A stretch of DNA of 64,000 nucleotides, from IMG/VR virus record IMGVR_UViG_3300038520_001354, positions 30,644 through 94,643 of that record. One strand, given 5' to 3'. A program made the position numbers and the translations under genes. The stretch comes from a virus. Its lineage: Duplodnaviria; Caudoviricetes. Positions 60,098 through 64,000 of the stretch are shown in pieces. The notes under the pieces were generated by a model. The model did no database searches and was not told the origin of the DNA. It saw only the letters and a list, made by a program, of their open reading frames with translations. Position 1 is the stretch's first letter. Every line of letters begins with the position of its first letter.

Positions 60098-60236
60098 AAC
60101 CCTTCGGGGTTATCACAAAGTTACAACCATATGGTTTAATGCTTCTTTGCAGTATTAGACCATATACGCCACTACTTCCCTTATAGTGCTACAAAGGGCA
60201 AATGAGTAGTAATTCTTAACATAGGAGTTGAAAAAC

Positions 60237-60764
60237 ATGAAAATGAAGAATTGGACACTAAACACAAACAAAGTGCGAGCATGGGCTGAAAATCAAGAGC
60301 CAAGCGATAACTTGAGTGCGGTTTTGTTATCCCTAACATTAGGAGATAATGCCGCTACTGACGAACTAAGAAGCACCTATTGGACAGCAATTCGCTCTAT
60401 TGGTTCAACAATGGAGGGGTTTCCGGCTGCGAGAAGGGGTCGAGAATCAACACTATCAGACGAACAGGAACTTGTTTTGGCGACTGTGGAGGAAAGCGTG
60501 GCAACTGCTATTGCTGCAATCCCTACTGAATACCACGAACTAATCCTATCTGTAATTGTTCCACATGGAAGAACAGGTGGCGTATTCGGCTCTTTCAGCG
60601 ATTTGGTTGCTAAGATGCGTAAGGATGCACATAACTACATGATTCAATCTATTAAGGACAATAGATGGGATGGCGAGTCTGTTGACGGAAATGGAGTGCC
60701 TCAAATCACTCCAAGACCAATAAAATCAGATAATTCAGACAATGGAGGTTCTGAAGAAGAATGA
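60237..60764 (+). CDS. Hypothetical protein, paralogue A (unit 2)
   Basis: Shares DELRSTYWTAIRSIGS, ARRGRES, PHGRTGG, NRWDG with 62985..63491. Confidence 0.75.
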   Translation: MKMKNWTLNTNKVRAWAENQEPSDNLSAVLLSLTLGDNAATDELRSTYWTAIRSIGSTMEGFPAARRGRESTLSDEQELVLATVEESVATAIAAIPTEYHELILSVIVPHGRTGGVFGSFSDLVAKMRKDAHNYMIQSIKDNRWDGESVDGNGVPQITPRPIKSDNSDNGGSEEE

Positions 60765-60896
60765 TACTACAAGTTTGCCCTTGTAGCCTCTTTCGGGGGG
60801 TTACTGCAAAGCATTAACCATATGGTTGTAATTACTTTGGAAAATACGACCATAAGCATATATTATTACTTTTTTAACAGTAAAGGAGGAAAAAAC

Positions 60897-61250
60897 ATGG
60901 CATCATTTTATGAATGGATAACAGATTATGTTAAAGAAGAAAATTATTGGGTAAAGGAAGATACAGGAATTAGTTATTATTTCTGTGAAGATACTATAAT
61001 GGAAGACTTTTGTCAAATAGCAAATATTGATGAAGATATTTATTATGCTGATGAATATGAAGTATTAAAACCATTATGGGATTCATATGAAAAAGAACAC
61101 AAGCCTTTCTCATATACTGATAAAGATATTAAAGACTATAAAAAAGAGGCTAATGCCGATGCTCGTATGTCTGCTATGGAAATGGGTTGGGGAACCTGTT
61201 ATACTACCGATTCAGACGGTTGGGAGACTTATTATCCTAATGAATGGTGA
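60897..61250 (+). CDS. Acidic hypothetical protein (unit 3)
   Basis: AGGAGG RBS; Asp/Glu/Tyr-rich; followed by ACCC-TACG-GGGT. Confidence 0.65.
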   Translation: MASFYEWITDYVKEENYWVKEDTGISYYFCEDTIMEDFCQIANIDEDIYYADEYEVLKPLWDSYEKEHKPFSYTDKDIKDYKKEANADARMSAMEMGWGTCYTTDSDGWETYYPNEW

Positions 61251-61388
61251 AAACCACCCTACGGGGTAATCCCAAAGCATTACCATATGGTTTGCTTTGA
61301 AAACCCTGTTCCGATAATTTTCCAAGATTCTCGGATTATTTTCAGAATTTTGTGAAACGGGCAGTATTAAGGAAAAGGAGGAAAAAAT

Positions 61389-61574
61389 ATGCCAAGAGGA
61401 AGAACAGATTTTATGATAGTGGATAATGTTGCTCATTTTTGGGCTGACAACAAAGAAGACATGAAAACCATGCTAAACATGCAAATGGTCAGTTTAGCGT
61501 TGGGAGGCTTCAAAATAAAAGCACATCCGGTTTCAGATGTAAAGCCAGCAATTTTCGGAGGTGAACAGGAATGA
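61389..61574 (+). CDS. Small hypothetical protein (unit 4)
   Basis: AGGAGG RBS. Confidence 0.6.
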   Translation: MPRGRTDFMIVDNVAHFWADNKEDMKTMLNMQMVSLALGGFKIKAHPVSDVKPAIFGGEQE

Positions 61575-61918
61575 ACATCAATTTTGGCACTGAAACAGAT
61601 TGCGAGAAGTGTAAGCCTCAATTGAATTGTTGGTGTAATGAAGGCCCAAATAGAGTTGAAACGCTAGGAGGTTGGAAATACGCCGATAAAGACATAGACG
61701 ATTTTGATAATGTATTCAATTACATAGATTGGATAGGAGAAACCCAAATAGGCTATGAAATGCAGTTTTGGCGGTGGGAAGAGATACAGGAGTATATCAA
61801 GGAGATATTGCTTGAGAATCACCGATTAGAGCAGTTATTGGTCATCAGTCAAGGTTTCGACCCTAATTTCAAGTCAATCATCACAGGAGAACCATTATGG
61901 CCGTCAGAAGAGGAATAA
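61571..61918 (+). CDS. Acidic hypothetical protein (unit 4)
   Basis: GGAGGTGA RBS, ATGA overlap. Confidence 0.6.
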   Translation: MNINFGTETDCEKCKPQLNCWCNEGPNRVETLGGWKYADKDIDDFDNVFNYIDWIGETQIGYEMQFWRWEEIQEYIKEILLENHRLEQLLVISQGFDPNFKSIITGEPLWPSEEE

Positions 61919-61994
61919 ATGAAATATTCAGGATATATGGTATTACAAAGTGTTACCATATGGTCTTATCTTTGAGATAGTGACCCGAAGGCCA

Positions 61995-62138
61995 TTACCA
62001 CATTCTTCCCAAGCGAAAAGCCTTTTGTTCGTAATAAGAATCCCATCCAATCCAATCCCCGCATTGAGGGCATTCAAAGATTTCATCTCCTGTAATCATC
62101 GGTATTTCGCAACATTCGCAATAAGGTGTGTCTTGCAT
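61995..62138 (-). CDS. Small zinc-ribbon protein (47 aa, unit 5, not in track)
   Basis: MQDTPYCECCEIPMITGDEIFECPQCGDWIGWDSYYEQKAFRLGRMW*, followed by TGGCC-TTCG-GGTCA. Confidence 0.65.
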   Translation of the reverse strand: MQDTPYCECCEIPMITGDEIFECPQCGDWIGWDSYYEQKAFRLGRMW

Positions 62139-62239
62139 GGTAATATACCGCTATATCGCTCATAAGGTTCAACTTCGTTACCGAGACAAAGTTATTGAAC
62201 CATATGGTGTGATACTTTGAAGAACTCCCGAAGAATTAA

Positions 62240-62512
62240 TCAGATAGGCATACTATCTCTCCATTCTTCTAGTTCTTGCATAGTTTCTGCAAATAATTCA
62301 GATTCATGAATTAGTTCAATTATGACAGATTGAACTTTAATTGGTGTATTTTTCCACTGTTCTTCAGTGATTCCATAATTTTCAAAAAGTGAAGATTGGA
62401 CTCTTTTGCTTCTTACCTGCATCATCCATTTTTCATTATCTGATATAAATGTAGTAAAATCAAATTCTCCTTCATCATCAATGTAGTTTTCCATTAGTGG
62501 TGCTTCTTGCAT
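62240..62512 (-). CDS. Acidic hypothetical protein (unit 6)
   Basis: 90 aa; TATA-like sequence about 25 bp upstream of ATG; cTTCGg hairpin downstream. Confidence 0.65.
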   Translation of the reverse strand: MQEAPLMENYIDDEGEFDFTTFISDNEKWMMQVRSKRVQSSLFENYGITEEQWKNTPIKVQSVIIELIHESELFAETMQELEEWRDSMPI

Positions 62513-62600
62513 GATAATACCAAAATTAGGTATTATATTATAGGGTATAACAAAGCGATACCATATGGTAAGAACTTTGAGATTACCACATGAAAATGCA

Positions 62601-62825
62601 CTAAAACATGCCTTTCATGATGAGTGTTATTTCTGCAACACCGATTTTTGCCACTTCTGAGCAAATATCATCACCTTCCATTTCCATAATCATTAGATTA
62701 ATCATAGCATCAGGTTCATCAGTCCACTCCATATCAGTCATAACCGCATCAGTAAACTTCTCTTGGAAGTATGAATATAGTATTTTTGAAGATTCAGCCA
62801 ATAGTTGTATATGTTCCTTAGACAT
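62601..62825 (-). CDS. Acidic hypothetical protein (unit 7)
   Basis: Start context TATTACCATG identical to that of the unit 5 gene. Confidence 0.6.
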   Translation of the reverse strand: MSKEHIQLLAESSKILYSYFQEKFTDAVMTDMEWTDEPDAMINLMIMEMEGDDICSEVAKIGVAEITLIMKGMF

Positions 62826-62984
62826 GGTAATATGAAATATTGTCAATTATTCTGGGGTTTTACAAAGTAACACCATATGGTTGTTTATCGCTTTGCGCTT
62901 GTATAATAAACAACCTTATCCGCCATAGCCTCTATTTATTGCTATGGGGAATAAATGTAGCATTTCTTTATTGGAGGAATTATT

Positions 62985-63491
62985 ATGAAGTTAGAGAATT
63001 GGAATAAGAATACTGCCGAGGTTCAATCTTGGCTAAATACGCAGGATATAGGTGACGCAGGACAAGCAATTGCATTATCTATTACACTTGGAAATAACTG
63101 TAATGACGATGAATTGCGCTCAACATATTGGACAGCAATTAGGTCAATAGGCTCTCAATACGAGTCTTTCCCAAAAGCCCGCAGGGGTCGAGAATCGGCA
63201 TTACCAGACGATATAGAGGTAAGTGCGACTTCTGTGAAGAATGCGGTAATTGCTGCCTTTGCGGATATTTCTAATGCAGAGTTGCTAATGACTGTTGTTT
63301 TGCCACACGGCAGAACAGGCGGCGCATATGCCGATATTAACGAATTTGCAAGAGTTATGGGCAAAAAGGCTTATGATGCTCTTGTAAAGGGCTACAAGGA
63401 GAATAGATGGGATGGAACCATGAACGGGGATATTCCAGCACTAACCCCGCCTCCGGTTAAATCCGCAGAAGGAGGCGAAGAAGAGGAATGA
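62985..63491 (+). CDS. Hypothetical protein, paralogue B (unit 8)
   Basis: GGAGG RBS; clear paralogue of 60237..60764. Confidence 0.75.
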   Translation: MKLENWNKNTAEVQSWLNTQDIGDAGQAIALSITLGNNCNDDELRSTYWTAIRSIGSQYESFPKARRGRESALPDDIEVSATSVKNAVIAAFADISNAELLMTVVLPHGRTGGAYADINEFARVMGKKAYDALVKGYKENRWDGTMNGDIPALTPPPVKSAEGGEEEE

Positions 63492-64000
63492 TGTTCATTT
63501 ATTCCCCGTAGCCTCATTTTGGGGTTGCGTTACACTTGCAAAGCAAAACCATATGGTTCATATAGGCTATATGAGAAGGCAATAATGATATTCATTGTGC
63601 ATATTAAACATTAATTGAATAGGAGCATTGTTTCTATAATATATAGGCTTGGTAAATAAACATCGAGAAGTTACCAATAGCGGTTTAATTAGACTTATAG
63701 ATGTTCATAAAGTTTAATCTTATAACATTCCCCCTATTTCACAGATATGCACTACGCATACTTCTTATTCCAACCATATGCTTTGTATCAAAATTTTTTA
63801 TTTTTACAAGTTTAAATGAAATCGCTCTAAAGCACCTATTTTGAAGCATTAACTTTAATTTTATTAAGTTTGACCCTCTCATATTATATGGTATGACTTG
63901 TTACGATTTACTGATACGGCATGTCTGCTGAGAAAGAGGCATTAGAACATTTAAATCAGATATTTACCATAATCAAAGAAACCCTCCAAGATGTAAATAA

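Follow-up and report, generated by a model that had tools for sequence, protein, structure and literature searches.

Covarying complementary mRNA ends in a gene family of a magrovirus suggest a self-pairing transcript

Results

Paralogous genes with complementary flanks in a magrovirus genome

The window analysed here, a 64,000-nt stretch of a 94,643-bp virus record, belongs to a magrovirus that is group B-like. Magroviruses are tailed viruses whose hosts are Marine Group II archaea. The record carries GroEL, RNR and ligase genes, the nearest relatives of its PolB are those of haloviruses HF1 and HRTV, and it shows the traits of a group B-like genome in the published magrovirus set, in which a genome of ~95-100 kb is combined with a halovirus-like family B DNA polymerase, a GroEL-type chaperonin and a ribonucleotide reductase (PMC5434244). 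Neither DNA nor protein searches recovered a relative among cultured phages.

Two genes of this window, A and B (Table 1), sit in an array of small cassettes that occupy both strands and have a palindromic repeat, ACCATATGGT, between them. Their proteins are paralogues (47% identity, E 1e-55), and a more distant paralogue, C, matches the family at E 6e-6. A and B are each bracketed by two complementary arms, one upstream of the ORF and one at its end, and the flanks have the sequences and positions reported in a preliminary description of this DNA. Arms were not found on the other cassettes of the array. At gene A the inverted similarity reaches outward into the palindromic repeat.

The products of the A/B family are predicted to be soluble six-helix proteins of 165-198 aa with an acidic tail. 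The gene A protein has 237 homologues, every one of them without a name, and its AF2 model (pLDDT 81) has six helices. No significant match to it was found in Pfam, PHROGs or NCBIfam, nor by PDB profile search, in the ESM atlas or by Foldseek against the PDB, and a wide VIA search with the model returned only generic three-helix bundles (Z <= 8). The sole Pfam, PHROGs and NCBIfam matches were noise (e.g. aIF2-alpha, 17.5 bits vs. a cutoff of 432).

Table 1. Genes, arms and predicted signals of the A/B family in the window (coordinates within the window).
Feature	Position	Strand	Remarks
Distant paralogue C	58525-58998	-	Without arms; internal contrast to A and B
Predicted archaeal TATA-like box, gene A	60159-60167	+	ACCATATAC; purine-rich BRE-like stretch before the box
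Gene A 5′ arm	60188-60217	+	Predicted mRNA +1 to ~+30; starts GCTAC; 60188-60211 in the preliminary description
Shine-Dalgarno-like GGAG and ATG, gene A	60224-60239	+	
Gene A	60237-60764	+	175 aa, all-alpha; family not recognised; acidic disordered tail
Gene A 3′ arm	60755-60787	+	Pairing takes in the stop codon and extends over the last codons (GAAGAA); 60765-60787 in the preliminary description
GC-rich hairpin after gene A	60783-60804	+	GTAGCCTC-TTTC-GGGGGGTTAC; GTAGC common to the 3′ arm
Predicted TATA-like box, gene B	62913-62921	+	ACCTTATCC
Gene B 5′ arm	62941-62969	+	Predicted mRNA +1 to +29; 62941-62957 in the preliminary description
Gene B	62985-63491	+	168 aa; paralogue of A
Gene B 3′ arm	63482-63512	+	Pairing covers the stop and last codons; 63496-63512 in the preliminary description
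GC-rich hairpin after gene B	63508-63528	+	GTAGCCTC-ATTTT-GGGGTTGC; G-U pairs valid on the + strand only

In the duplex predicted for gene A, a 1-nt bulge separates an outer helix of 5 bp from a core of 9 bp (AAGGGCAAA/TTTGCCCTT), and a 3x3 internal loop separates the core from a further helix of 6 bp (GTAGTA/TACTAC). When the full 628-nt predicted mRNA was folded, the minimum free energy (MFE) structure placed the 5′ arm in 23-25 pairs with the 3′ arm at a probability near 1, and left 6 nt between the end of this long-range helix and the downstream Shine-Dalgarno (SD) sequence. For gene B, 62941-62957 and 63496-63512 pair at 17 of 17 positions (16 Watson-Crick pairs and one U-G, the wobble already noted in the earlier account), the U-G pair is valid on the + strand only, and the MFE fold of the predicted mRNA has 25-28 long-range pairs. 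No Rfam family matched anywhere within 58000-64000 at E <= 1.

Flank complementarity exceeds chance and is specific to each gene

We compared the energy of the duplex between 5′ and 3′ flanks over the 190 ORFs of the window and found that A and B stand far apart from the rest (-45.0 and -46.1 kcal/mol, respectively, vs. a mean of -12.3, sd 5.6; next best -24.6 kcal/mol). Within the window, the arms are thus a property confined to the A/B gene family. Among homologues, cognate arms pair much more strongly than non-cognate arms (mean -36.3 vs. -18.8 kcal/mol), as they do within one genome when compared with cross pairs of A with B (mean -37.4 vs. -21.0 kcal/mol), and exact complementary runs are longer in cognate flanks (median of the longest run, 11 nt) than in shuffled or non-cognate ones (5-6 nt). 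Chance is excluded as the origin of the A/B complementarity.

The pairing is kept while the sequence changes

The preliminary description had named the loss of complementarity or of compensatory changes at homologous loci as the result that would refute it; the homologous loci keep both. The set comprised 33 loci with 44 non-identical homologues, the most distant at ~30% protein identity, and an exact complementary core of 8-16 nt was kept in all 44, in ~30 different core sequences. Covariation was assessed on a MAFFT alignment (A3) that was not fitted to any structure, against 500 shuffles. In this alignment 85.1% of cells pair (vs. 68.3% shuffled), 121 double-sided changes were observed (vs. 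35.7 expected) and the covariation score was 0.44 (vs. 0.14 shuffled), each value being reached in 0/500 shuffles, although these statistics overstate independence because the sequences are phylogenetically related. Slid registers pair at only 46-51%, and compensatory changes occur in 12 of the 16 pairs of the helix. Across 765 columns, RNAalifold recovered the arm helix as the sole substantial helix, and full-length folds contain it in 44/44 genes (14-29 pairs, probability near 1). Since pairing persists in 44 relatives while the sequence changes, the mRNA ends very probably pair.

The pairing also reaches the stop-codon region, where there is no local hairpin, and covaries there (GCATCA/TGATGC and GTATCA/TGATAC; GTTAAAC/GTTTAAC in TAG-stop variants). 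The stop codon lies inside the helix in 21/44 genes, and the helix ends 0-18 nt before the downstream SD across homologues; as both features vary, the anatomy does not point to any one translational mechanism. Sequestration of the SD by the 3′ arm was considered and rejected, given that the helix stops upstream of the SD and offers it no consistent cover.

Predicted transcript ends

In 44/44 genes a conserved box, ACC(T/A)TATAC, stops exactly 20 nt upstream of the G that opens the 5′ arm, and leaderless neighbouring genes carry the same box 21-24 nt before their ATG; the fixed distance and the spacing in these neighbours together place the predicted transcription start at this opening G. The earlier account had pointed to AT-rich boxes directly upstream of the arms as possible promoters, in which case the 3′ UTR would be complementary to promoter DNA. 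We abandon this alternative, as the proximal AT-rich stretch is not conserved and the conserved box lies 20 nt upstream in every gene.

On the 3′ side, every homologue is followed by a conserved GC-rich hairpin, with the sense strand giving the more stable form in 33/38, which bears out the hairpins with G-U pairs that had been described at both 3′ ends; the one after gene A is likely a 3′-end or terminator structure. Both arms lie within the predicted transcription unit, whose ends were placed solely by sequence motifs, and the box at 20 nt, the leaderless neighbours and the 3′ hairpin suggest that both would be carried on one transcript. Transcript-like contigs (~600-660 nt) exist for many homologues; they were set aside, as the two that were checked are metagenome scaffolds with ends that differ from the predicted transcript ends.

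Local hairpins within the arms

The arms can also fold on themselves. Alone, the gene A 5′ arm forms a weak 5′-terminal hairpin (GCTAC...GTAGT), and that of gene B forms GCTATG...TGTAGC. The claim of competing 5′ hairpins is thereby upheld in that a local 5′-terminal hairpin competes with the long-range helix, but not for the particular hairpin proposed for B (CCATAGC/GCTATGG, 62923-62947), which exists, has its left half upstream of the predicted transcription start and is not kept by orthologues. The local 5′ hairpin is more stable on the sense strand in 36 vs. 2 genes, an advantage we do not rely on because it may partly reflect G-rich composition.

These folds raise the alternative that the arms are two independent hairpins, a 5′-terminal stabiliser and a post-stop structure, with no functional long-range pairing, their likeness being explained by an inverted copy and gene conversion. 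Each arm is indeed able to fold locally (5′ GCTTC...GAAGC; 3′ CTAC/GTAG, GGC/GTC or GCAAC/GTTGC). Moreover, arm positions 3-4 (UU vs. UN) almost never pair long-range, and substitutions there are compensated within an arm and not between arms; two mirror-image hairpins thus account for some of the apparent complementarity. However, the best-kept complementarity is that of the loops, which local folding does not constrain, and it extends to the stop-codon region, outside any hairpin. Gene conversion should also homogenise positions 3-4, yet the arms differ there in nearly all lineages, and in many genes, among them gene B of the window, L004-B, L008, L040 and L042, no 3′ local hairpin forms at all (0 kcal/mol) and the long-range core is kept nevertheless. 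We consider this explanation improbable, though it survives better than the others that follow.

Less probable alternatives: pairing in trans or DNA-level repeats

Slightly less probable, in our judgement, is that the pairing acts in trans, so that fresh transcripts of the same gene would be regulated through mRNA dimerisation or by a stable 3′-UTR-derived RNA fragment. The covariation serves this explanation equally, because base pairing cannot tell cis from trans, and a processed 3′ fragment could owe its stability to the GC hairpin beside the 3′ arm. Against it, a cis interaction is kinetically favoured, and there is no specific support for a trans-acting RNA, with neither a separate promoter nor a processing signal visible.

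The arms might otherwise be DNA-level inverted repeats, either recombination or inversion sites or the ends of mobile cassettes in the ACCATATGGT-delimited array. The organisation of the array, with small cassettes on both strands and a palindromic repeat between them, would suit such a role, as would the extension of the gene A inverted similarity into that repeat. However, the complementarity behaves as a feature of the sense-strand RNA. Sense RNA gives a stabler duplex than antisense RNA in 31 genes, and the opposite holds in 6 (Wilcoxon p 1.8e-5; 67 G-U pairs); this greater stability favours RNA over DNA. A mismatch count on loosely extended alignments shows no G-U excess (35 vs. 31), unlike the energy-based strand test on defined arms, in which the excess is visible. 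Further evidence weighs against DNA repeats: the arm sequences vary between copies (~30 cores), whereas recombinase or transposase sites would be conserved; the arms are confined to the interval from the predicted transcription start to the 3′ hairpin and extend into coding sequence; the A and B copies keep one relative orientation, with no inverted variant among the assembled sequences of the 33 loci; and the other cassettes of the array are without arms. This is the least probable of the three alternatives. Finally, an archaeal bulge-helix-bulge (BHB) processing or circular-RNA stem, which consists of two 3-nt bulges on opposite strands with a 4-bp helix between them, was rejected, since the staggered bulges are absent: the helices of the family carry a U-rich 2x2 loop towards their outer end, and their other internal loops are symmetric or irregular (3x3 in gene A).

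Discussion

Taken as a whole, these observations are probably best explained by pairing of the two ends of A/B-family mRNAs into a panhandle. An RNA switch or closed-loop mRNA was the interpretation first proposed for this DNA, and either of these, or more simply a self-pairing mRNA, stands as the best reading given the covariation, the sense-strand behaviour and the competing 5′ hairpin. We picture each gene as giving a monocistronic mRNA of ~600-650 nt, the first 20-35 nt of which would pair with 20-35 nt starting at or just after the stop codon and so close the message into a panhandle, that is, a non-covalent circle. From its predicted +1, the 5′ arm would fold first as a 5′-terminal hairpin (GCUUC...GAAGC) with a G-rich loop left unpaired; transcription of the 3′ arm would supply a C/U-rich core that can dock on this loop, and the 3′ arm could then displace the local stem (long-range -30 to -46 vs. 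local -5 to -9 kcal/mol). It is plausible that the message switches between its hairpin and closed forms. Formation of the helix in vivo is inferred from the sequence. One point against the panhandle is that, in archaea, translation is coupled to transcription, and ribosomes moving along the 170-codon ORF could hold the mRNA ends apart.

Our best guess is that the helix would tune mRNA lifetime and translation. The sequestered ends would be shielded from exonucleases, and the stop codon would be kept a few nucleotides at most from the ribosome-binding site, where terminating ribosomes may melt part of the helix and be released beside the start site. A more speculative proposal, which we regard as rather unlikely, is that of a prokaryotic closed-loop device in which the stop codon beside the ribosome-binding site would promote re-initiation on the same mRNA (intramolecular termination-reinitiation), the closed form perhaps also serving as a mark of resistance to host or viral ribonucleases, and an orthogonal address for each paralogue would prevent cross-pairing.

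The family had been likened to the hok and aapA type I toxins. Membership in that class does not fit the product, a soluble, all-helical protein of 170 aa and not a small hydrophobic toxin; the ORFs of type I (hok/Sok) toxins encode about 30-60 aa, hydrophobic and membrane-bound. Toxin features were not seen in the A/B products, nor did anything point to an antisense RNA in the region, which matches no Rfam family. The hok system comprises a ~50-aa membrane toxin, an antisense Sok RNA and 3′ processing, with metastable hairpins that form first during transcription, and in its fold-back inhibition (fbi) the 5′ end pairs with the 3′ end and alternative local hairpins exist, as in the A/B genes. 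The likeness to hok is one of mechanism only. Terminal complementarity set against local terminal hairpins, and covarying between lineages, also characterises flavivirus 5′-3′ CS/UAR cyclisation and the panhandles of segmented negative-strand RNA viruses; there, however, it concerns RNA genomes and controls replication, whereas here it concerns the mRNA of a dsDNA virus. To our knowledge, no more than a few genes, all bacterial, have been shown to pair the two UTRs of their mRNA with each other, and RNase III is generally absent from Euryarchaeota.

Complementarity between the 5′ and 3′ UTRs with compensatory changes, by which an icaR- or hbs-like interaction would be judged, was found in the A/B genes. 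In the icaR mRNA of Staphylococcus aureus, a C-rich segment within the 3′ UTR base-pairs with a G-rich segment in the 5′ UTR of its own mRNA, specifically with the Shine-Dalgarno region itself, which blocks initiation and creates an RNase III site (PMC3868564). Both cases are long-range interactions in cis that bracket one ORF; unlike in icaR, the 5′ partner in the A/B genes occupies the very 5′ end of the predicted message and leaves 0-18 nt to the SD, pairing on the 3′ side begins at the stop codon, and the host is archaeal. UTR-UTR pairing in Bacillus subtilis hbs, a small, highly expressed gene, protects the mRNA from ribonucleases and ties stability to translation (PMC5737220). Unlike the A/B family, hbs is a bacterial system, dependent on RNase Y and RNase J1, and is not known to show family-wide covariation with paralogue-private sequences. 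In haloarchaea, a functional interplay of 5′- and 3′-UTRs in translational control has been reported, both UTRs being needed together, and an equivalent of transcript circularisation without cap or poly(A) tail was discussed (Brenneis and Soppa 2009, PMC2636863). That interaction is reported as functional only, with no base-paired element defined, whereas the A/B case offers a covarying helix from sequence alone. Our literature search found no archaeal or archaeal-virus precedent for self-pairing mRNA ends.

The A/B genes thus present an explicit helix, with unusually clean covariation, in a gene family of abundant, uncultured ocean archaeal viruses. This undescribed RNA element, absent from Rfam, is predicted to mark transcript boundaries and promoters in magrovirus genomes, and it provides a concrete object with which to ask whether circularisation serves to control decay or the recycling of ribosomes in mRNAs that have neither cap nor poly(A) tail.

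Viral setting and encoded protein

The virus record is 94,643 bp long, and the window, its final 64 kb, carries genes for tail proteins, for a family B DNA polymerase (closest cultured relatives, haloviruses HF1 and HRTV), a GroEL-type chaperonin, ribonucleotide reductase and a ligase. The same gene traits characterize group B magroviruses, tailed viruses whose assigned hosts are the uncultured Marine Group II archaea (Philosof et al., 2017; PMC5434244), and, judged by gene contents alone, this virus is classed as a group B-like magrovirus. Small genes on both strands fill the last 4–5 kb, and between them lies a repeat around ACCATATGGT, all eight exact copies of which in the window fall within that stretch. 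No copies of the A/B/C family other than those tabulated were found in the whole genome record.

Coordinates of the paralogues and associated features in the window
Feature	Coordinates	Strand	Remark
Gene A	60237-60764	+	paralogue of B, 47% identity
Gene A arms	60188-60211 with 60765-60787		
Gene B	62985-63491	+	paralogue of A, 47% identity
Gene B arms	62941-62957 with 63496-63512		
Paralogue C	58525-58998	minus	very distant third copy
C hairpin	59000-59040		GCCC-TGAAAT-GGGC
AT-rich non-coding region	59260-59600		~350 bp, upstream of C
Tandem repeat	59427-59469		AGATAGATG, five times
Intergenic repeat	59726-63785		
Repeat module between convergent genes	61934-61990		
Convergent gene	61571-61918	plus	
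Cassette genes	61995-62138, 62240-62512, 62601-62825	minus	in region 61995-62846; first is convergent with 61571-61918
Next-best flank duplex	55836-56225	minus	129-aa ORF

The A/B-family protein is predicted to form six helices and an acidic disordered tail (pLDDT 81); it had no family match in Pfam, PHROGs, NCBIfam or PDB profile searches and no specific match in fold searches. Its 237 homologues, none of them named, come from marine metagenomes, and several share only ~30% identity with A. A weak NCBIfam similarity of protein B to the helical domain of the translation initiation factor aIF2-alpha (E 0.0019; 17.5 bits vs. a cutoff of 432) is probably noise.

Complementary flanks in genes A and B and their relatives

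The arm sequences and coordinates of the preliminary description proved exact on re-check, and transcript boundaries derived independently coincide with them. The gene A duplex has an outer helix of 5 bp and, past a bulge of 1 nt, a core of 9 bp, which a 3x3 internal loop separates from a helix of 6 bp. Gene B pairs at 17/17 positions, one of them a U-G possible on the + strand only. When 5' and 3' flanks were compared for all 190 window ORFs of at least 50 aa, A and B reached duplex energies of −45.0 and −46.1 kcal/mol (mean −12.3, sd 5.6; next-best −24.6). The complementarity is not chance, and such arms are not a general trait of the cassette array. The next-best duplex contains a 10-bp perfect run and may be a chance match.

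From 42 IMG/VR loci retrieved we obtained 44 non-identical A/B-type genes at 33 loci, and in every one the 5' flank is exactly complementary, over a core of 8–16 nt (median 11), to a stretch beginning 0–22 nt past the stop codon (median longest run for shuffled or non-cognate flanks, 5–6 nt). About 30 different core sequences occur (e.g. AAGGGCAAA, GGGGAATAAATG, CAAGGGGCGAAA, CAACGGGAATAG, CAAAGGAGTAACAAAC and CGAGTGGTAGTGA), and within one genome paralogues prefer their own partner (−37.4 vs. −21.0 kcal/mol for the cross-partner). Arms were looked for and not found in C or its orthologues; in their place C has a small GC hairpin directly 5' of the ribosome-binding site, which in relatives (loci L002 and L004) reads CCCC-GCAAA-GGGG.

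The preliminary description had proposed covariation across homologous loci as a check, and the pairing withstood it. In a structure-blind MAFFT alignment of the 44 predicted full-length transcripts, a 16-pair helix was paired in 85.1% of cells (68.3% when shuffled), with 121 cells changed on both sides (35.7) and a covariation score of 0.44 (0.14); the observed value was reached in 0/500 shuffles on each of the three measures, counts that are not probabilities because the sequences are related. Independent of that relatedness are the 3–4 pair types per column and the slid-register control, in which moving the partner by 1–3 columns lowered pairing to 46–51%. Compensatory changes occur in 12 of the 16 pairs. 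RNAalifold, run on the full 765-column alignment, returned this long-range helix, 10 bp of it, as the sole substantial one, with compensatory changes at 10/10 pairs.

Predicted promoter, leader and transcript ends

A purine-rich stretch precedes an archaeal TATA-like box, ACC(T/A)TATAC, whose end is exactly 20 nt 5' of the arm's first G in 44/44 genes. In archaeal promoters the TATA element is centred near −26, and therefore transcription should start at the G of GCTTC or an adjoining nucleotide, which would make the 5' arm the extreme 5' end of a predicted 38–59-nt leader. A conserved GC-rich hairpin lies directly 3' of the 3' arm; given this hairpin and the box, both arms belong to one predicted transcription unit.

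Some neighbouring array genes have the same box 21–24 nt ahead of an ATG that lacks a Shine-Dalgarno (SD) sequence, the geometry of leaderless archaeal genes, and others have it 36–39 nt ahead of an SD-led ATG. Three minus-strand cassette genes, with a TATA-like box 21–25 nt ahead of the ATG and no SD, are therefore predicted to be leaderless; since plus-strand neighbours have SD leaders of 16–19 nt, the array mixes three leader classes.

The intergenic repeat resembles a portable module that combines a terminator with a promoter. It runs GC hairpin, CAAAG, ACCATATGGT and a hairpin with CTTTG in its loop, whose 3' strand is a BRE/TATA-like box (e.g. GGTTGTTT...AAACAACC) and whose stem covaries among relatives (GGTTGATT/AATCAACC and GGTTGTAAA/TTTACAACC). 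In sequence this box is similar to a half-site of the palindrome (ACCATAT vs. ACCTTAT). One module aims its promoter-like half into the 3' end of a convergent plus-strand gene and, if that half is active, would drive antisense transcription. The AT-rich region also holds dispersed GAGACGAGA-type words.

RNA or DNA

Four observations favour a sense-strand RNA feature: the box, the 3' hairpin, strand energies and covariation at the stop codon. The duplex is more stable as sense RNA in 31 genes and as antisense in 6 (mean sense gain 3.3 kcal/mol, Wilcoxon p 1.8e-5), a gain due to 67 G-U pairs and free of base-composition bias because the arms swap composition on the opposite strand. In about half of the genes complementarity enters the stop codon and last codons, where pairs covary (GCATCA/TGATGC, GTATCA/TGATAC), and the only two genes ending with TAG pair GTTAAAC/GTTTAAC.

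Had the arms been recombination sites, their sequence would be shared between copies, which it is not; no inverted gene variants were seen among the 33 loci. Terminal inverted repeats, a BHB stem and a hok-type locus were each rejected on their defining tests, and the protein does not resemble a type I toxin.

Local hairpins and the long-range helix

Almost all 5' arms can fold alone as a hairpin beginning at the predicted +1, with a covarying stem (GCTTC/GAAGC, GCTAC/GTAGC, GCTCC/GGAGT, GCGTC/GACGC). Arm positions 3–4 (UU vs. UN) are almost never paired long-range but are paired locally, and selection therefore acts on the 5' hairpin itself. The proposal that each arm has a competing local structure thus holds for the 5' arm; a 3' hairpin, with compensatory changes (CTAC/GTAG, GGC/GTC, GCAAC/GTTGC), occurs in many, not all, 3' arms.

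Such hairpins on both sides could suggest mimicry of one by the other, yet mimicry alone cannot explain the complementarity: the loops are its best-kept part, several genes, window gene B among them, have no 3' hairpin, and gene conversion would also have homogenised positions 3–4. Thermodynamic folds of the full predicted transcripts (570–700 nt) contained the long-range helix in 44/44, with 14–29 pairs at probability near 1 and −30 to −46 kcal/mol; the 5' hairpin has −5 to −9 kcal/mol.

Proposed closure of the mRNA and its possible function

We consider it likely that 5'-3' pairing of the sense RNA is under selection. Its nearest known parallels are the 5'/3' UTR interactions of icaR (PMC3868564) and hbs (PMC5737220), the fold-back inhibition of hok and the sequences through which RNA viruses cyclise. 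Our literature searches turned up no account of such a helix from archaea or archaeal viruses, and Rfam gave no match for the helix region; for archaea, what has been reported goes no further than that both UTRs are functionally required (PMC2636863).

Most probably the 5' hairpin would fold first, exposing its G-rich loop, on which the C/U-rich 3' arm, synthesised ~550 nt later, could dock, displacing the local stem and closing the mRNA. The helix ends 0–18 nt upstream of the SD (median 8) and does not consistently cover it, which makes plain masking of the SD, of the icaR kind, improbable. As to the effect of closure, we infer that sequestering both ends would shield the mRNA from exonucleases and that a stop codon held beside the ribosome-binding site may couple termination to re-initiation, which is documented for adjacent archaeal genes (PMC6728339); the hairpin and closed states may also act as a switch.
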